Assembly (NCBI RefSeq): GCF_041886205.1
Contig: NZ_CP169029.1
Length of the DNA stretch: 64,000 nt
Reading direction: 5' to 3' (one strand)
Source of the DNA: Escherichia coli
GTDB taxonomy: Bacteria; Pseudomonadota; Gammaproteobacteria; Enterobacterales; Enterobacteriaceae
Made by a program: the position numbers and the translations under genes. How positions within the stretch are numbered: position 1 is the first letter of the stretch; every line of letters starts with the position of its first letter. The notes under the pieces were generated by a model that did no database searches, was not told the origin of the DNA, and saw only the letters and a program-made list of their open reading frames with translations. Of this stretch, positions 17,576 to 59,800 are shown piece by piece.

Positions 17576-20500
17576 ATGATGGAAATTCTGCGTGGTTCGC
17601 CTGCACTGTCGGCATTCCGAATCAACAAACTGCTGGCACGTTTTCAGGCTGCCAGGCTCCCGGTTCACAATATTTACGCCGAGTATGTCCATTTTGCTGA
17701 CCTCAATGCGCCGTTAAACGATGATGAGCACGCACAACTTGAACGCCTGCTGAAATATGGCCCGGCACTCGCCAGCCACGCCCCGCAAGGCAAACTCCTG
17801 CTGGTGACCCCGCGTCCTGGCACCATCTCTCCCTGGTCTTCGAAAGCGACCGATATTGCCCATAACTGCGGGCTACAACAGGTAAACCGCCTTGAGCGCG
17901 GCGTTGCTTACTATATAGAAGCCGGTACGCTGACCAATGAACAATGGCAGCAGGTTACCGCTGAACTGCACGACCGCATGATGGAAACGGTCTTTTTTGC
18001 TTTAGATGATGCAGAGCAGTTGTTTGCCCACCATCAACCGACTCCGGTTACCAGCGTTGATTTGCTGGGGCAGGGCCGTCAGGCGCTGATCGACGCTAAC
18101 CTGCGTCTTGGCCTGGCTCTGGCGGAAGATGAAATTGACTATCTGCAGGATGCTTTCACAAAGCTTGGTCGTAACCCGAACGACATCGAGCTGTATATGT
18201 TCGCTCAGGCGAACTCTGAGCACTGCCGCCACAAAATTTTTAATGCCGACTGGATTATCGACGGTGAACAGCAGCCGAAATCGCTGTTCAAGATGATCAA
18301 AAATACTTTCGAAACCACGCCAGATCACGTTCTCTCTGCTTATAAAGATAACGCCGCCGTAATGGAAGGTTCTGAAGTGGGCCGCTACTTTGCTGACCAC
18401 GAAACGGGCCGCTACGATTTCCATCAGGAACCGGCGCATATTCTGATGAAAGTCGAAACTCACAACCACCCGACGGCGATTTCTCCGTGGCCGGGCGCGG
18501 CGACCGGTTCCGGCGGCGAAATTCGTGATGAAGGCGCCACCGGACGCGGTGCGAAACCGAAGGCTGGTCTGGTTGGTTTCTCCGTATCCAACCTGCGAAT
18601 TCCTGGCTTCGAACAGCCGTGGGAAGAAGATTTCGGTAAGCCTGAGCGCATTGTCACCGCGCTGGACATCATGACCGAAGGCCCGCTGGGCGGCGCGGCG
18701 TTTAACAACGAATTTGGTCGTCCGGCACTGAATGGCTACTTCCGTACTTATGAAGAAAAAGTGAACAGCCACAATGGCGAAGAGCTGCGCGGTTATCACA
18801 AACCGATCATGCTGGCGGGCGGGATCGGCAACATTCGCGCCGATCACGTACAAAAAGGCGAGATCAACGTCGGTGCGAAGCTGGTCGTTCTCGGCGGCCC
18901 GGCAATGAACATCGGTCTTGGCGGCGGAGCGGCGTCTTCCATGGCGTCAGGTCAGTCTGATGCCGACCTCGACTTTGCTTCCGTACAGCGCGACAACCCG
19001 GAGATGGAGCGTCGCTGCCAGGAAGTGATCGACCGTTGCTGGCAGCTTGGTGATGCCAACCCAATCCTGTTTATCCACGACGTCGGCGCTGGCGGTCTTT
19101 CTAACGCGATGCCGGAACTGGTGAGCGACGGCGGGCGCGGCGGTAAATTTGAACTGCGCGATATTCTAAGCGACGAACCGGGCATGAGCCCGCTGGAAAT
19201 CTGGTGTAACGAATCCCAGGAACGCTACGTGCTGGCGGTTGCTGCCGATCAATTACCGCTGTTTGACGAACTGTGTAAGCGTGAGCGCGCACCCTACGCG
19301 GTGATTGGTGAAGCGACCGAAGAACTGCATCTTTCTCTGCACGATCGTCATTTTGATAATCAGCCGATCGATCTGCCGCTGGACGTCCTGCTTGGTAAAA
19401 CGCCGAAGATGACCCGCGATGTACAAACGCTGAAAGCGAAGGGCGATGCGCTGGTCCGTGAAGGGATCACCATTGCAGACGCGGTGAAACGCGTACTGCA
19501 TCTGCCGACCGTGGCGGAGAAAACTTTCCTGGTGACCATCGGTGACCGCAGCGTAACCGGCATGGTGGCGCGCGATCAGATGGTGGGGCCGTGGCAGGTG
19601 CCGGTCGCTAACTGCGCGGTCACTACCGCCAGCCTCGACAGCTACTACGGTGAAGCGATGGCGATTGGCGAGCGTGCGCCGGTTGCGCTGCTGGATTTCG
19701 CCGCCTCTGCCCGTCTGGCGGTCGGTGAAGCGTTAACCAATATTGCCGCAACACAGATTGGCGATATCAAACGCATTAAACTTTCCGCCAACTGGATGGC
19801 GGCGGCAGGCCACCCTGGTGAAGATGCGGGCCTGTATGAAGCCGTTAAAGCCGTGGGCGAAGAGCTTTGTCCGGCGCTGGGCCTGACGATCCCGGTGGGT
19901 AAAGACTCTATGTCGATGAAAACCCGCTGGCAGGAAGGTAACGAAGAGCGCGAAATGACGTCGCCGCTGTCGCTGGTGATTTCTGCATTTGCCCGCGTGG
20001 AAGATGTACGTCACACCATCACGCCGCAGCTTTCTACCGAAGATAACGCACTGCTGCTGATTGATTTGGGCAAAGGCAATAACGCGCTGGGCGCAACGGC
20101 GCTGGCGCAGGTTTATCGTCAGCTTGGCGACAAACCGGCAGATGTACGCGATGTCGCGCAACTGAAAGGCTTCTATGACGCGATTCAGGCGCTGGTTGCA
20201 CAGCGTAAGCTGCTGGCGTATCACGACCGCTCTGATGGCGGCCTGCTGGTAACGCTGGCGGAAATGGCCTTTGCTGGTCATTGTGGCATTGACGCGGATA
20301 TCGCCACTCTGGGTGACGATCGCCTGGCGGCGTTGTTTAACGAAGAACTGGGTGCGGTGATTCAGGTTCGTGCCGCTGACCGTGAAGCGGTCGAGTCCGT
20401 ACTGGCACAGCATGGGCTTGCGGATTGCGTCCATTATGTTGGGCTGGCGGTTTCCGGTGACCGTTTTGTGATTACCGCCAACGGGCAGACTGTATTCAGC

Positions 20501-21463
20501 GAAAGCCGCACTACGTTGCGTGTCTGGTGGGCAGAAACTACCTGGCAGATGCAGCGCCTGCGTGACAACCCGGAGTGTGCCGATCAGGAGCATCAGGCGA
20601 AATCAAACGACGCCGATCCGGGCCTGAATGTAAAACTGTCGTTCGATATCAACGAAGATGTGGCAGCACCGTATATTGCCACTGGCGCACGTCCGAAAGT
20701 TGCCGTGCTGCGTGAGCAGGGTGTGAACTCACATGTTGAAATGGCGGCAGCCTTCCACCGTGCAGGCTTCGATGCAATCGATGTGCATATGAGCGACCTG
20801 CTGGCTGGACGCACGGGCCTGGAGGATTTTCACGCCCTGGTCGCGTGCGGAGGTTTCTCCTACGGTGACGTGCTGGGTGCCGGTGAAGGTTGGGCGAAGT
20901 CTATCCTGTTCAATGACCGTGTACGCGATGAGTTTGCAACCTTCTTCCATCGTCCGCAAACGCTGGCGCTGGGGGTATGTAACGGTTGCCAGATGATGTC
21001 TAATCTGCGTGAACTGATCCCAGGTAGTGAGTTGTGGCCACGTTTTGTGCGCAATACCTCCGATCGCTTTGAAGCGCGTTTCAGCCTGGTTGAAGTAACC
21101 CAAAGCCCGTCTCTGCTGTTGCAGGGGATGGTGGGCTCGCAAATGCCGATTGCTGTCTCTCACGGTGAAGGGCGCGTTGAAGTGCGTGATGCGGCGCATC
21201 TGGCGGCACTGGAAAGCAAAGGGCTGGTGGCACTGCGCTATGTCGATAACTTCGGCAAAGTCACTGAAACCTACCCGGCTAACCCGAACGGTTCACCGAA
21301 CGGTATTACGTCGGTTACGACTGAAAGTGGTCGAGTCACCATTATGATGCCGCACCCGGAACGTGTTTTCCGTACTGTCAGCAACTCCTGGCATCCGGAA
21401 AACTGGGGCGAGGATGGCCCATGGATGCGCATTTTCCGCAATGCGCGTAAGCAGTTGGGGTAA
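17576..21463 (+). CDS. purL: phosphoribosylformylglycinamidine synthase
   Basis: 1295-aa ORF with C-terminal glutamine amidotransferase domain (GVCNGCQ). Confidence 0.95.
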
Positions 21464-21486
21464 GTCATCAGTTCATTGGTTTTGCA

Positions 21487-21518
21487 GCCCGGATGCGGCA
21501 TTTACGCCGCATCCGGCA
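21487..21518. repeat. REP-like palindromic unit downstream of purL
   Basis: ccggatgcggc ... gccgcatccgg inverted repeat. Confidence 0.45.
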
Positions 21519-21540
21519 TTAAGCACCAACCACTATCATA

Positions 21541-21567
21541 AGCTCCCAACTCCGGGAGCTTTTTTGT
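21541..21567 (+). terminator. rho-independent terminator after purL
   Basis: agctccc / gggagct stem followed by TTTTTT. Confidence 0.6.
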
Positions 21568-21599
21568 GTCTGTAAATCACGACAATGGATGGTTTGCTG

Positions 21600-21680
21600 T
21601 GTCGCTTTTTGGTGACATTTAACTCATTGATTTTAATGTCATCTAATAAGTTTATCTTAAGTTGTCTCTTTTTAGCGACA
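21600..21680 (+). promoter_or_regulatory. GlrR (QseF) activator binding sites upstream of glmY (TGTC-N10-GACA repeats)
   Basis: tgtcgctttttggtgaca at 21600-21617 and tgtctctttttagcgaca at 21663-21680, upstream of a sigma54 promoter. Confidence 0.5.
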
Positions 21681-21769
21681 CAGTGGCTGATTTACATTCA
21701 AACAGCGGAGAAGCCATAAACCCCTCAAAGCAGCGTATAATCAGTACGTTACCAAACTATTTTCTTTAT

Positions 21770-21785
21770 TGGCACAGTTACTGCA
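21770..21785 (+). promoter_or_regulatory. sigma54 (-24/-12) promoter of glmY
   Basis: TGGCACagttaCTGCA, GG and GC elements with canonical spacing. Confidence 0.6.
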
Positions 21786-21796
21786 TAATAGTAAGC

Positions 21797-21981
21797 AGTT
21801 GCTCATTCACCGACTTATGTCAGCCCCTTCGGGACGTGCTACATAAAATTCGAATGACGCACAACAAGGTGCCTGCCGTCCAACTTCTGATATCAGCGTA
21901 GCTATATCAACCATCGGGCGAAACGTCGAGTTAGGCACCGCCTTATTCCATAACAAAGCCGGGTAATTCCCGGCTTTGTTG
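21797..21981 (+). ncRNA. glmY: small regulatory RNA GlmY
   Basis: Sequence ...ctcattcaccgacttatgtcagccccttcgggacgtgctacataaaattcgaatgacgc... recognised as GlmY; ends in hairpin aaagccgggtaattcccggcttt plus U-tract; lies between purL and glrK; 5' end approximate. Confidence 0.75.
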
Positions 21982-22038
21982 TATCTGAACTTCCCCTCGG
22001 TTAGCATCAGGCTATTCGCGTCTGACGAGAGTAACACC

Positions 22039-23466
22039 TTGAAACGCTGGCCCGTTTTTCCCCGCTCATTACGACAACTGGTAATGCTGGCATTTTTGCT
22101 AATTCTACTACCCCTGTTGGTGCTGGCATGGCAAGCCTGGCAAAGCCTGAATGCGCTTAGCGATCAGGCGGCGCTGGTTAACCGCACTACGCTTATTGAT
22201 GCCCGGCGTAGTGAAGCGATGACCAACGCGGCGCTGGAGATGGAGCGTAGCTACCGTCAGTATTGCGTGCTGGACGACCCTACGCTTGCGAAGGTTTATC
22301 AAAGCCAGCGCAAGCGTTACAGCGAAATGCTCGATGCCCACGCAGGCGTACTGCCAGACGATAAACTTTACCAGGCATTGCGTCAGGATTTGAACAATCT
22401 GGCCCAACTTCAGTGTAACAACAGTGGTCCCGATGCTGCCGCCGCCGCGCGTCTTGAAGCCTTTGCCAGTGCCAATACCGAAATGGTGCAGGCCACGCGC
22501 ACAGTGGTGTTCTCTCGTGGGCAGCAACTTCAGCGTGAAATCGCCGAACGTGGGCAATATTTTGGTTGGCAATCGCTGGTGCTATTTCTGGTGAGTCTGG
22601 TGATGGTGCTACTTTTCACGCGGATGATTATCGGGCCGGTGAAAAATATCGAGCGCATGATCAACCGTCTGGGGGAAGGGCGTTCTCTGGGCAATAGCGT
22701 TTCGTTCAGTGGACCGAGCGAGTTACGCTCGGTTGGGCAACGTATTCTTTGGTTAAGTGAGCGCCTGTCATGGCTGGAATCCCAACGCCATCAATTTTTA
22801 AGACATTTATCTCATGAATTAAAAACGCCACTGGCGAGTATGCGCGAGGGCACTGAATTACTGGCTGACCAGGTTGTCGGGCCGCTTACGCCAGAGCAAA
22901 AAGAGGTGGTGAGCATTCTTGATAGCAGCAGCCGCAATTTGCAAAAACTGATCGAACAACTGCTTGATTACAACCGTAAACAGGCGGACAGTGCGGTGGA
23001 ACTGGAGAATGTTGAATTAGCACCGCTGGTGGAGACAGTGGTTTCTGCTCATAGCCTGCCCGCACGGGCTAAAATGATGCATACCGACGTCGATCTCAAA
23101 GCAACAGCTTGCCTGGCGGAGCCAATGCTGCTGATGAGCGTACTGGATAATCTTTACTCCAATGCGGTGCACTACGGGGCTGAATCCGGTAACATTTGCC
23201 TTCGCAGCAGTTTACATGGTGCGCGGGTTTATATTGATGTCATCAATACAGGCACGCCCATTCCGCAAGAGGAACGCGCCATGATCTTCGAACCCTTTTT
23301 TCAGGGAAGCCACCAGCGAAAAGGGGCGGTGAAGGGCAGCGGTCTGGGATTAAGCATTGCCAGGGATTGTATTCGCCGTATGCAAGGGGAACTGTATCTG
23401 GTCGACGAGAGCGGGCAAGACGTTTGTTTCCGCATTGAATTACCGTCGTCGAAAAACACGAAATAA
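22039..23466 (+). CDS. glrK: sensor histidine kinase GlrK (QseE)
   Basis: HisKA H-box HELKTPL and HATPase domain; start set at TTG (LKRWPVFPRS, 475 aa) by comparison with remembered protein. Confidence 0.85.
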   Translation: MKRWPVFPRSLRQLVMLAFLLILLPLLVLAWQAWQSLNALSDQAALVNRTTLIDARRSEAMTNAALEMERSYRQYCVLDDPTLAKVYQSQRKRYSEMLDAHAGVLPDDKLYQALRQDLNNLAQLQCNNSGPDAAAAARLEAFASANTEMVQATRTVVFSRGQQLQREIAERGQYFGWQSLVLFLVSLVMVLLFTRMIIGPVKNIERMINRLGEGRSLGNSVSFSGPSELRSVGQRILWLSERLSWLESQRHQFLRHLSHELKTPLASMREGTELLADQVVGPLTPEQKEVVSILDSSSRNLQKLIEQLLDYNRKQADSAVELENVELAPLVETVVSAHSLPARAKMMHTDVDLKATACLAEPMLLMSVLDNLYSNAVHYGAESGNICLRSSLHGARVYIDVINTGTPIPQEERAMIFEPFFQGSHQRKGAVKGSGLGLSIARDCIRRMQGELYLVDESGQDVCFRIELPSSKNTK

Positions 23467-23630: not shown

Positions 23631-24344
23631 ATGCGACACATTTTTCAACGATTATTGCCCCGACGGCTGTGGCTGGCAGGGCTGCCATGTCTGGCATTGC
23701 TGGGTTGCGTGCAGAATCACAATAAGCCAGCCATTGATACGCCAGCAGAAGAAAAAATTCCGGTTTATCAACTGGCTGACTATCTTTCTACTGAATGTAG
23801 CGACATCTGGGCGCTGCAAGGTAAATCAACCGAAACCAATCCGCTTTACTGGCTGCGGGCGATGGATTGTGCTGATCGTTTAATGCCTGCGCAGTCGCGT
23901 CAGCAAGCTCGCCAATATGACGACGGCAGCTGGCAAAATACCTTTAAACAAGGGATTTTGCTCGCCGACGCCAAAATTACGCCGTATGAGCGCCGCCAGC
24001 TGGTCGCGCGTATTGAAGCGTTAAGTACCGAGATCCCGGCACAGGTTCGCCCACTGTATCAACTCTGGCGCGACGGTCAGGCGCTGCAACTGCAACTGGC
24101 GGAAGAGCGCCAACGTTACAGTAAACTCCAGCAGTCCAGCGACAGCGAGCTGGATACATTGCGCCAGCAACATCACGTTCTACAGCAGCAACTGGAACTC
24201 ACCACCCGCAAGCTGGAAAACCTGACCGATATTGAACGCCAGCTCTCGACCCGCAAACCGGCTGGAAATTTCTCGCCGGATACGCCGCACGAGAGTGAAA
24301 AGCCCGCGCCATCCACCCATGAGGTCACTCCTGATGAGCCATAA
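23631..24344 (+). CDS. qseG: outer-membrane lipoprotein QseG
   Basis: Start refined to MRHIFQRLLPRRLWLAGLPCLALLGC (lipobox); Q-rich coiled-coil C-terminus; overlaps glrR start. Confidence 0.8.
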   Translation: MRHIFQRLLPRRLWLAGLPCLALLGCVQNHNKPAIDTPAEEKIPVYQLADYLSTECSDIWALQGKSTETNPLYWLRAMDCADRLMPAQSRQQARQYDDGSWQNTFKQGILLADAKITPYERRQLVARIEALSTEIPAQVRPLYQLWRDGQALQLQLAEERQRYSKLQQSSDSELDTLRQQHHVLQQQLELTTRKLENLTDIERQLSTRKPAGNFSPDTPHESEKPAPSTHEVTPDEP

Positions 24345-25668
24345 ACCTGCGCATTTATTATTGGTCGATGACGATCCGGGATTGCTGAAACTGCTTGGCC
24401 TGCGCCTGACCAGCGAAGGCTACAGTGTGGTCACGGCGGAAAGTGGCGCTGAAGGATTACGGGTACTGAATCGCGAAAAAGTAGATTTAGTTATCAGCGA
24501 CCTGCGGATGGATGAAATGGACGGTATGCAGCTATTTGCTGAAATCCAGAAAGTGCAGCCGGGAATGCCAGTAATTATTCTTACTGCGCATGGTTCTATC
24601 CCCGATGCCGTTGCTGCAACACAGCAGGGCGTTTTTAGTTTCCTCACCAAGCCTGTCGATAAAGATGCGCTATATCAGGCAATTGACGATGCGCTGGAGC
24701 AATCCGCGCCAGCCACCGATGAACGCTGGCGCGAGGCAATTGTCACCCGCAGCCCGCTGATGCTGCGTTTGCTGGAACAGGCGCGGCTGGTGGCGCAATC
24801 AGACGTCAGCGTTTTGATTAACGGCCAGAGCGGCACCGGGAAAGAGATTTTCGCCCAGGCTATCCACAACGCCAGCCCGCGCAATAGCAAACCATTTATT
24901 GCTATTAACTGTGGTGCATTGCCTGAGCAATTGCTGGAGTCGGAGCTGTTTGGTCATGCGCGTGGCGCGTTTACTGGCGCTGTCAGCAATCGCGAAGGTT
25001 TATTCCAGGCGGCGGAAGGCGGAACGCTATTTCTCGATGAGATTGGCGATATGCCTGCGCCGTTGCAGGTCAAACTGCTGCGCGTGTTGCAGGAGCGTAA
25101 AGTGCGCCCGCTGGGCAGTAACCGCGATATGGATATCAATGTGCGGATTATTTCTGCCACTCACCGTGATCTGCCAAAAGCGATGGCGCGCGGGGAATTC
25201 CGCGAAGATCTCTATTACCGTCTCAACGTTGTCAGCCTGAAAATTCCGGCACTGGCGGAGCGCACAGAAGACATTCCGCTACTGGCAAATCACCTGTTGC
25301 GCCAGGCGGCAGAGCGACATAAACCGTTTGTCCGCGCGTTCTCTACCGATGCGATGAAACGCCTGATGACCGCGAGCTGGCCGGGTAATGTGCGCCAGTT
25401 GGTCAACGTGATTGAACAGTGCGTGGCGCTGACCTCATCTCCGGTGATTAGTGATGCGCTGGTGGAGCAGGCGCTGGAGGGTGAAAATACGGCGCTGCCA
25501 ACCTTTGTTGAGGCACGTAATCAGTTTGAACTCAACTATCTGCGTAAGCTGCTGCAAATCACCAAAGGCAACGTCACCCACGCGGCGAGAATGGCGGGGC
25601 GCAACCGGACAGAATTTTATAAACTGCTTTCCCGACACGAGCTGGATGCAAACGATTTCAAGGAATGA
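24334..25668 (+). CDS. glrR: sigma54-dependent response regulator GlrR (QseF)
   Basis: Start refined to [14 protein letters not shown] (444 aa); receiver domain, AAA+ sigma54-interaction domain (GESGTGKE-like, GAFTGA), C-terminal HTH. Confidence 0.9.
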
Positions 25669-25692: not shown

Positions 25693-26067
<375 letters not shown>

Positions 26068-27352: not shown

Positions 27353-27630
27353 ATAAAAAATAGCCCTGCAATGTAAATGGTTCTTTGGTGTTTTTCAGAA
27401 AGAATGTGATGAAGTGAAAAATTTGCATCACAAACCTGAAAAGAAATCCGTTTCCGGTTGCAAGCTCTTTATTCTCCAAAGCCTTGCGTAGCCTGAAGGT
27501 AATCGTTTGCGTAAATTCCTTTGTCAAGACCTGTTATCGCACAATGATTCGGTTATACTGTTCGCCGTTGTCCAACAGGACCGCCTATAAAGGCCAAAAA
27601 TTTTATTGTTAGCTGAGTCAGGAGATGCGG

Positions 27631-31031: not shown

Positions 31032-31046
31032 GGTAATGACTCCAAC

Positions 31047-31550
31047 TTATTGATAGTGTTTTATGTTCAGATAATGCCCGATAACTTTGTCATGCAGCTC
31101 CACCGATTTTGAGAACGACAGTGACTTCCTGCCCAGCCTTGCCAGATGCTGCCTCAGATTCAGGTTATGCCGCTCAATGCGCTGCGTATATCGCTTGCTG
31201 ATAACGTGCAGTTCTCCCTTCAGGCGTGATTCATAAAGCGGCCAGCCATCCGTCATCCATACCACGACCTCAAAGGCCGACAGCAGGCCCAGAAGACGCT
31301 CCAGCGTCGCCATAGTGCGTTCACCGAATACGTGCGCAACAACCGTCTTCCGGAGCCTGTCATACGCGTAAAACAGCCAGCGCTGGCGCGATTTAGCCCC
31401 GACATAGCCCCACTGTTCGTCCATTTCCGCGCAGACGATGACGTCACTGCCCGGCTGTATGCGCGAGGTTACCGACTGCGGCCTGAGTTTTTTAAGTGAC
31501 GTAAAATCGTGTTGAGGCCAACGCCCATAATGCGGGCAGTTGCCCGGCAT
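31047..31550 (-). CDS. insB: IS1 InsB (transposase C-terminal ORF; InsAB' made by -1 frameshift)
   Basis: 167-aa [19 protein letters not shown]...KHYQ recognised as IS1 InsB. Confidence 0.9.
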
Positions 31551-31744
31551 CCAACGCCATTCATGGCCATATCAATGATTTTCTGGTGCGTACCGGGTTG
31601 AGAAGCGGTGTAAGTGAACTGCAGTTGCCATGTTTTACGGCAGTGAGAGCAGAGATAGCGCTGATGTCCGGCGGTGCTTTTGCCGTTACGTACCACCCCG
31701 TCAGTAGCTGAACAGGAGGGACAGCTGATAGAAACAGAAGCCAC
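31469..31744 (-). CDS. insA: IS1 InsA (transposition repressor)
   Basis: 91-aa [46 protein letters not shown] (zinc-finger-like), GTG start; A6C slippery site ttaaaaaac at its 3' end. Confidence 0.9.
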
Positions 31745-31799
31745 TGGAGCACCTCAAAAACACCATCATACACTAAATCAGTAAGTTGGCAGCATCACC

Positions 31800-39091: not shown

Positions 39092-39964
39092 ATGACCATC
39101 TATACCTTATCCCACGGGTCGCTAAAGCTGGACGTTTCTGACCAGGGCGGCGTAATCGAAGGCTTCTGGCGCGATACGACGCCGCTCTTACGTCCTGGTA
39201 AAAAAAGCGGTGTGGCAACCGATGCCTCCTGTTTTCCGCTGGTGCCATTTGCAAACCGGGTGAGCGGCAACCGTTTTGTCTGGCAGGGGCGTGAGTATCA
39301 ACTGCAACCGAATGTTGAGTGGGATGCGCACTATCTACACGGCGATGGCTGGCTGGGCGAGTGGCAATGTGTCTCGCACAGCGATGATAGTTTGTGTCTG
39401 GTGTATGAACATCGCAGCGGTGTCTATCACTATCGGGTAAGTCAGGCGTTTCATTTAACGGCGGATACGCTGACGGTGACGCTCTCTGTCACCAATCAAG
39501 GGGCAGAGACGCTGCCATTTGGTACCGGCTGGCATCCTTATTTTCCGTTGTCACCACAAACGCGGATTCAGGCGCAGGCGAGCGGTTACTGGCTGGAACG
39601 GGAGCAGTGGCTGGCGGGTGAGTTTTGCGAGCAGCTACCGCAGGAACTGGATTTTAACCAGCTCGCGCCGTTGCCGCGCCAGTGGGTGAACAATGGTTTT
39701 GCCGGATGGAATGGTCAGGCCCGCATCGAGCAGCCGCAGGAAGGTTATGCCATCATCATGGAAACGACGCCACCTGCACCGTGTTATTTCATCTTTGTTT
39801 CCGACCCTGCGTTTGATAAAGGATATGCGTTTGATTTCTTCTGTCTGGAACCGATGAGCCATGCGCCGGATGATCATCATCGCCCGGAAGGGGGTGATCT
39901 CATTGCGCTAGCACCAGGGGAATCAACAACTTCAGAGATGTCGTTGCGGGTAGAGTGGCTGTAA
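39092..39964 (+). CDS. yphB: aldose 1-epimerase family protein
   Basis: 290-aa ORF, mutarotase-like fold. Confidence 0.75.
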   Translation: MTIYTLSHGSLKLDVSDQGGVIEGFWRDTTPLLRPGKKSGVATDASCFPLVPFANRVSGNRFVWQGREYQLQPNVEWDAHYLHGDGWLGEWQCVSHSDDSLCLVYEHRSGVYHYRVSQAFHLTADTLTVTLSVTNQGAETLPFGTGWHPYFPLSPQTRIQAQASGYWLEREQWLAGEFCEQLPQELDFNQLAPLPRQWVNNGFAGWNGQARIEQPQEGYAIIMETTPPAPCYFIFVSDPAFDKGYAFDFFCLEPMSHAPDDHHRPEGGDLIALAPGESTTSEMSLRVEWL

Positions 39965-51983: not shown

Positions 51984-52094
51984 TAAAAAGAATTCAGAAT
52001 CAGGCCGGGGCGTATCGCGCTCCGTAAACACGGTCGTACATCCAGCCGGTAGCCTGGTTCCTTGCATTGAGTGATGTACGGAGTTTATAGAGCA

Positions 52095-58574: not shown

Positions 58575-59351
58575 ATGTCCGAAACAAAAAATGAACTTGA
58601 AGACCTGCTGGAAAAAGCAGCAACCGAACCGGCGCACCGCCCGGCCTTTTTCCGTACTCTACTGGAATCCACCGTCTGGGTGCCTGGTACGGCGGCGCGG
58701 GGCGAGGCGGTGGTTGAAGATAGCGCGCTTGATTTACAGCACTGGGAAAAAGAAGACGGCACCAGCGTCATTCCTTTTTTTACCTCGTTAGAAGCACTTC
58801 AACAGGCAGTTGAAGACGAACAGGCATTTGTCGTAATGCCCGTTCGCACATTGTTTGAGATGACCCTTGGCGAAACGCTCTTCCTTAATGCCAAACTGCC
58901 AACCGGTAAAGAGTTTATGCCGCGTGAAATCAGTTTGTTGATTGGTGAAGAAGGGAATCCGCTGAGTAGCCAGGAAGTACTGGAAGGCGGTGAATCGCTG
59001 ATATTATCGGAAGTCGCAGAGCCGCCAGCACAAATGATTGATTCACTCACCACCTTATTTAAAACCATTAAGCCAGTGAAGCGTGCTTTTATATGTTCAA
59101 TTAAAGAGAACGAAGAGGCACAGCCTAATTTACTTATTGGCATTGAAGCCGATGGTGATATCGAAGAAATTATTCAGGCGGCGGGAAGTGTAGCGACCGA
59201 TACATTACCTGGCGATGAACCAATCGATATTTGTCAGGTGAAAAAAGGGGAAAAAGGAATTAGCCACTTTATTACCGAACATATTGCGCCATTCTATGAA
59301 CGTCGTTGGGGTGGTTTTTTGCGTGACTTTAAACAGAACCGGATAATCTAA
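58575..59351 (+). CDS. sseB: protein SseB (enhances serine sensitivity)
   Basis: Start refined to MSETKNELEDLLEKA (258 aa). Confidence 0.85.
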   Translation: MSETKNELEDLLEKAATEPAHRPAFFRTLLESTVWVPGTAARGEAVVEDSALDLQHWEKEDGTSVIPFFTSLEALQQAVEDEQAFVVMPVRTLFEMTLGETLFLNAKLPTGKEFMPREISLLIGEEGNPLSSQEVLEGGESLILSEVAEPPAQMIDSLTTLFKTIKPVKRAFICSIKENEEAQPNLLIGIEADGDIEEIIQAAGSVATDTLPGDEPIDICQVKKGEKGISHFITEHIAPFYERRWGGFLRDFKQNRII

Positions 59352-59800
59352 AATATGCCGCCCCAAAGGGCGGCATTCGGGCTTACCTGCTGTTCTGAAG
59401 GTTGTTAACCACCAGTAAATTGTTGCCGGAGAGACTCAGGTTATTATTTACCTCGGTTAACAGCGCACCAGAAACAATAAGTACGATACAAAAGCACCGT
59501 ATCTTCATTGTGCGGTCCATGCGAAGACCGCATCACGACAGCACCACTGGCGATATTGCCGCGATAGCAAGCGCTGTGAAACACCTGCATTTACGGCCAC
59601 GGAACATCCTTTCCTAAAGCCAGCGCCCGTTTGCGAGACGGCGGAAAGGGCCGGTGTCGATAATACGCTAAATAAACAATAATTACTCTCTTTTGCTTGA
59701 CAAAAAGAGAGTTGCTGGCGAATATTGCTCTGCTGTGAAGCACCTGCGTTGCTCATGCAACACAAGTCAACCTGCTGGAAAGGCCGCGAACCAGACCAGC
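59352..59800. ncRNA. ryfA: putative sRNA locus (position consistent with ryfA) in the sseB-sseA convergent spacer
   Basis: 500-bp gap between convergent genes, bounded by hairpin terminators on both sides and containing promoter-like hexamers; I recall ryfA being annotated between sseA and sseB but cannot verify strand or ends from sequence. Confidence 0.35.

Follow-up and report, generated by a model that had tools for sequence, protein, structure and literature searches.

What does the spacer between purL and glrK encode in this Escherichia coli DNA? An open reading frame crosses it on each strand, and an earlier note, made from the letters alone, had read the same interval as the gene of a small regulatory RNA, GlmY. 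We analysed the spacer within its surroundings, a stretch of 64,000 nucleotides (hereafter the window, to whose positions all coordinates refer). We consider it close to certain that the locus is E. coli glmY with its complete published control region, beside glrK-qseG-glrR, and we found no evidence that contradicts the identification of glmY. The locus is a textbook case in which the gene of a small RNA is linked to its own activating two-component system. It is already known in full detail and holds no new biology, so that the finding has little value beyond correct annotation. RefSeq automatic annotation leaves glmY out of all three non-K-12 genomes that we examined: beneath the match it shows qseE alone or no feature. 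A scan of raw sequence that brings out both the RNA and its control region thus serves its purpose.

The genes on either side of the spacer set the scene. Upstream lies purL (17576-21463, + strand; NCBIfam NF003672, 2273 bits), followed by a terminator-like hairpin at 21540-21561. Downstream lies glrK (qseE; 22039-23466, + strand, TTG start), a sensor histidine kinase gene whose product has Pfam HAMP, HisKA and HATPase_c domains. No NCBIfam model scored above its cut-off for this product, so the name GlrK is that given by RefSeq (qseE/GlrK) on identical or near-identical DNA. The next gene is qseG (23631-24344, + strand), which encodes an outer-membrane lipoprotein (NCBIfam NF007997, 359 bits against a cut-off of 234) and sits between the kinase and regulator genes, as expected for GlrK/QseG/GlrR (QseE/G/F). 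QseG is required for GlrK/GlrR activity. The sigma54-dependent response regulator itself is encoded by glrR (qseF; 24334-25668, + strand), a full-length match to the NCBIfam equivalog NF011695 with 981 bits against a cut-off of 763. The claim that GlrR is encoded downstream is thereby borne out, and we take GlrR to be the activator of the glmY promoter. Beyond glrR, an NCBIfam profile search places glnB at 25729-26067 (+ strand).

The RNA in the spacer is GlmY. In a search with all Rfam families, the 15 kb around the purL-glrK spacer gave a sole gathering-level match, to GlmY (RF00128), at 21797-21944 on the plus strand. The match covers model positions 1-163 of 163 and scores 147.9 bits against a cut-off of 33 (E 1.2e-33), and what had been called recognisable as GlmY by eye is thus upheld by the family model.

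Might the RNA nevertheless be the paralogue GlmZ, pairing directly with glmS mRNA? GlmY and GlmZ are homologous members of one Rfam clan (CL00011), and a GCUCAUUC 5' stem is common to both. Within that clan GlmY beat GlmZ: the Rfam tool retains the best family per clan, so a reported GlmY match means that GlmY outscored its paralogue. Moreover, the locus lies between purL and glrK, like K-12 glmY, whereas K-12 glmZ is elsewhere, between aslA and hemY. A different, GlmZ-like 5' end, TAGATGC, begins four of the five listed loci from other genera that lack glrK. Duplex energies against the K-12 glmS leader, calculated for whole RNAs and for 24-nt windows, did not separate GlmY from GlmZ, as G+C-rich hairpin arms dominate the values and accessibility is ignored. 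The chance that this RNA is GlmZ is so small as to be negligible, and we treat it as GlmY from here on.

Mapping the K-12 annotation (b4441) by alignment puts glmY at 21797-21980 on the plus strand, with a primary transcript of 184 nt. The Rfam match ends at nucleotide 148, and 21797-21944 is the part predicted here to correspond to the processed form, since the 184-nt RNA is trimmed to an active 148-nt form by 3' processing (PMC4152352). Folding predicts two stem-loop domains on the 5' side and a hairpin at the end (-62.7 kcal/mol, z -4.9). The earlier note had described an RNA ending in a strong hairpin and a U-tract; indeed, we find an intrinsic terminator with a 14-bp hairpin at 21950-21982 (+ strand; -23.4 kcal/mol and z -6.9 by direct folding), whose 3' arm extends into UUUGUUGU. 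A simple terminator scanner missed it and reported that of purL alone, probably because the T-run is interrupted and lies partly within the stem, and the matter was therefore settled by direct folding. The interval first assigned to the locus, 21598-21985, does contain glmY; the gene itself ends at about 21980, and one of the three GlrR sites described below falls outside.

How widely is this arrangement kept? Among complete E. coli genomes, the 597-bp spacer is present in 5425 of 5426, as a rule once per genome and always on the chromosome. We also scanned across genera, with one genome per species and a pattern taken from the RNA body only (GCTCATTCANC-N4-TATG-N20-40-CGAATGA). The scan returned at least 120 loci, and all those with titles that name a genus are from Enterobacterales. 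On the same strand glrK follows in 99 of the 104 listed loci with enough flank, and glrR follows in 45 of 46; purL lies upstream in 85 of 101 listed loci. In an alignment of 106 distinct RNA bodies, stem-loop 2, which lies outside the search pattern, carries compensatory changes, for example A-U to C-G in 26 sequences, U-A to A-U in 8 and C-G to U-A in 5. Stem-loop 1 has invariant stems, but these were fixed by the search pattern and are therefore uninformative.

Five listed loci lack a downstream glrK (L019, L040, L093, L096 and L109). The four that start with TAGATGC (in Budvicia, Hafnia and two others) carry a sigma54 promoter and are probably GlmZ paralogues; glmZ is likewise preceded by a sigma54 promoter in many genera (PMC3045617).

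We turn now to the promoter. A sigma54 element of the form TGGCAC-N5-CTGCA (TGGCACagttaCTGCA) lies at 21770-21785 on the plus strand, from -27 to -12 relative to the RNA 5' end. Exact alignment shows its -24 and -12 elements to be identical to those of K-12, in agreement with the promoter proposed from the letters. The motif alone is not rarer than chance: allowing one mismatch, the sigma54 consensus has 3 matches in the window against 3.9 expected. It carries weight because it stands at a fixed distance from the RNA 5' end and recurs in related genomes. Among the matches listed, TGGCAY-N5-NTGC is found 26-29 nt upstream of the inferred RNA 5' end in 115 of the 116 loci for which 260 bp of upstream sequence were available. 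With a stricter pattern, TGGCAY-N5-YTGCW, 40 of the cross-genus loci went unmatched; in 39 of these 40 a G or an A precedes TGC, and we relaxed the pattern for this reason. Edwardsiella hoshinae has the only listed locus without a TGG-N9-TGC core in the 40 nt upstream of its GlmY, where the sequence is ATCGGCAGTTGTGTAACC; its glmY promoter may have diverged or shifted.

A second, weak promoter overlaps the first. Read from the sequence, the hexamer CATAAT at 21784-21789 (+ strand; -13 to -8) overlaps the sigma54 -12 element. Goepel 2011 (PMC3045617) assigns this hexamer in Escherichia to an overlapping sigma70 promoter, as its -10 element. The overlapping CATAAT that marks the Escherichia, Klebsiella and Salmonella group is thus present here, and the hexamer occupies -13 to -8 in 50 of 117 loci (the matches listed plus the window). 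A sigma70 scan of 21400-22100 flagged no promoter, and we saw no convincing -35 element for glmY. Both the silence of the scanner and the lack of a convincing -35 fit a weak promoter, and with the scan silent we base the glmY sigma70 element on its -10 hexamer and on the literature.

The control region extends well upstream of the promoters. Three GlrR sites lie more than 100 bp upstream of K-12 glmY, each of the form TGTC-N10-GACA (Goepel 2011, PMC3045617), and this motif has exactly three matches in the 64-kb window, all inside 114 bp of the spacer; shuffling the whole window gave a mean of 0.75. All three predicted sites match exactly. The most distal (TGTCtgtaaatcacGACA) is at 21567-21584, from -230 to -213, and is ABS1 of the published numbering by our reading. 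The middle site, ABS2 (TGTCgctttttggtGACA), is at 21600-21617 (-197 to -180), and the promoter-proximal site, ABS3 (TGTCtctttttagcGACA), which is identical to that of K-12, is at 21663-21680 (-134 to -117). The earlier note had listed two GlrR-type sites, those starting at 21600 and 21663. Both are present; the third begins and ends to the left of the interval it gave, by 14 bases at the nearer edge. In other genera the same layout recurs: counting sites with at most one mismatch, 94 of 117 loci (the matches listed plus the window) have exactly three GlrR-like sites and 3 have four, and many of the listed cross-genus loci have such a site at the offset of ABS2.

Between GlrR sites 2 and 3 lies a predicted IHF site, the distal site 1 (AATCAATGAGTTA; 21620-21632, minus strand), which matches WATCAANNNNTTR exactly. 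The GlrR sites together with this IHF site span from 117 to 230 bp upstream of the glmY start. The distal IHF site is essential for the sigma54 promoter in K-12 (PMC3045617), and relative to ABS2 the exact IHF consensus keeps its place in 67 of 95 listed Enterobacterales loci. In the published arrangement, IHF sites lie on both sides of ABS3. A further match, to WATCARNNNNTTR, is found at 21739-21751 on the plus strand (AATCAGTACGTTA) and is a candidate for the published IHF site 2; an exact consensus stands at the same offset in only about 13 of the 95 listed related loci. The earlier note, sound on the sigma54 promoter, had overlooked both the IHF site and the overlapping sigma70 promoter.

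Could the spacer encode protein as well? The two open reading frames named at the outset both exist. One runs on the plus strand at 21662-21901 (79 aa) and the other on the minus strand at 21807-22037 (76 aa), and if either or both encoded a real small protein, the locus would be coding or have two functions. Their existence and length speak for such a reading. Neither, however, has any match in NCBIfam or Pfam, and RefSeq places no coding sequence over them in K-12 or in the nearest genomes. The plus-strand frame begins with a TTG inside GlrR site 3, and this start codon, 135 nt upstream of the transcription start, is therefore not on the GlmY transcript at all. Moreover, the RNA is kept in 95 other listed species, and an ORF of at least 60 aa overlaps it in 38 of them on the plus strand and in 32 on the minus strand, so that such an ORF is absent from roughly 60-66%. 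The verdict of the earlier note, that both ORFs are spurious, agrees with their lack of a family match and of a RefSeq coding sequence and with their frequent absence elsewhere. A coding role for one or both is highly improbable, and we regard them as frames that are open by chance across a non-coding RNA gene, glmY.

The GlmY of this strain differs from that of its nearest relative at one nucleotide. At nucleotide 4 of the RNA (21800, plus strand) there is a private substitution, a T where the nearest genome has G. Of the 5423 complete E. coli genomes with a match to the region, none is exact over the 71 nt around this position, and the best have one mismatch. The nearest complete genome, wlxctx60 (NZ_AP045833.1), is separated from the window by ten substitutions and two indel differences over 64 kb, and 21800 is one of two differences in 15 kb. 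The other within that distance is at 27390, in the hmp-glyA spacer.

Does this substitution alter the expression or stability of GlmY in the strain? An effect of this kind would make the gene a variant of glmY, not something of another identity. In its favour are the absence of the change from all 5423 genomes, its place among only ten substitutions in 64 kb, and the predicted fold, in which U4 extends the first stem by an extra base pair. In the Rfam consensus structure, nonetheless, position 4 belongs to the 5' tail, which is unpaired. Furthermore, about one third of the 120 listed Enterobacterales loci have T (U in the RNA) at this position and U is the Rfam consensus base, so that the state is tolerated. 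Neutral drift or an error of sequencing could account for a single lineage-specific change in 184 nt, and we regard G4U as either a neutral private change or such an error. We think it very unlikely that expression or stability is altered in this strain. It is just as doubtful that G4U is a functional variant, one that would affect how readily the polymerase leaves the promoter or how stable the first stem is, and would thereby move the set-point of GlmY, GlmZ and GlmS in the lineage.

We also considered whether the private changes cluster in regions controlled by GlrR. Two substitutions relative to the nearest genome, at 2734 and 2744, lie 10 bp apart in the spacer between nadB and rseD/rpoE, and the 91 bp around them have no exact match in complete E. 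coli genomes. The rpoE gene (about 3115-3690, + strand) is the other known sigma54/GlrR target. Its upstream spacer holds no TGTC-N10-GACA with one mismatch or fewer. With ten differences in all, four of them non-coding, one at +4 of glmY and two in the nadB-rpoE spacer are within drift, and we rejected the idea of a cluster.

The larger differences from wlxctx60 lie elsewhere. An IS1 copy of about 766 bp (31033-31797), absent from that genome, shows terminal repeats like those of IS1 and contains two ORFs with matches to the IS1 transposase family; when coordinates are mapped, it falls inside yphG and interrupts that gene, which encodes a DUF5107 protein. About 260 bp at 39252-39512 have no counterpart in wlxctx60, where the yphB-like aldose epimerase gene is shorter accordingly, and the window probably carries the intact yphB-like gene. 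Other gathering-level Rfam matches in the window are to known E. coli elements: AsrC (5290-6121, minus strand), the rncO leader (8905-9119, plus strand), OhsC (12532-12596, minus strand, adjoining shoB), the iscRS stability element (51984-52093, plus strand) and RyfA (59350-59654, minus strand).

How would the locus work? If the K-12 literature carries over to this strain, phosphorylated GlrR would bind the three upstream sites, and IHF would bend the DNA so that GlrR could activate sigma54 RNA polymerase, while the overlapping sigma70 promoter would supply basal transcription from the same start (PMC3045617, PMC6075780). The 184-nt transcript would then be trimmed to 148 nt, the point at which the Rfam match ends (PMC4152352). 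When glucosamine-6-phosphate is scarce, GlmY would build up and, as a decoy, tie up the adaptor protein RapZ; GlmZ would then escape RNase E and pair with glmS mRNA with the help of Hfq, giving more GlmS (PMC4152352, PMC7073468).

The small RNA and the two-component genes had been described as a self-contained unit, which goes too far. K-12 qseEGF is transcribed from a separate sigma70 promoter located directly after glmY, and the operon does not regulate its own expression (PMC6075780). The corresponding promoter of glrK-qseG-glrR in the window is likely to be at 21980-22014 on the plus strand, with the putative hexamers TTGTAT (21980-21985) and TAGCAT (22002-22007) separated by a 16-nt spacer and a start near 22014. 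On this placement TTGTAT and the tail of the glmY terminator would overlap. The promoter scan flagged neither hexamer, and indeed both published sigma70 promoters, the one that overlaps that of glmY and the one of glrK, are weak and fall below the threshold of the scanner. The circuit also needs sigma54, IHF, RapZ, GlmZ, Hfq and RNase E, which we take to be encoded elsewhere.

K-12 glmY (b4441, RF00128; formerly called sroF or tke1) likewise sits between purL and glrK, and in the alignment its 5' end and terminator coincide with those found here, as does its length of 184 nt. Nothing differs between the two strains in the sigma54 promoter, in the CATAAT hexamer, in the IHF site or in two of the three GlrR sites. 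The RNA has two substitutions here relative to K-12, the private G4U and an A-to-U change at nucleotide 54 that FDAARGOS_943 also has. Two changes fall within the N10 spacer of the middle GlrR site, and several more substitutions lie in the upstream region. The REP-like palindrome after purL (21499-21516; GCCCGGATGCGGCATTTACGCCGCATCCGGCAT) is 18 bp longer here, and in FDAARGOS_943, than in K-12.

GlmZ (also known as sraJ or ryiA) is a homologue of GlmY, and the two RNAs have a similar two-stem-loop body. GlmZ has a pairing site for glmS and binds Hfq, whereas GlmY is without the pairing site and serves as a decoy for RapZ (PMC4152352). In many Enterobacterales glmZ, too, has GlrR sites along with its sigma54 promoter (PMC3045617); E. 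coli glmZ has a sigma70 promoter only. Finally, Proteus mirabilis has the same gene order in its glmY-qseEGF locus, with QseF sites in the glmY promoter (PMC8745638). The four Proteus genes are reported as one operon (PMC8745638), whereas qseEGF of E. coli K-12 is served by its own sigma70 promoter (PMC6075780).
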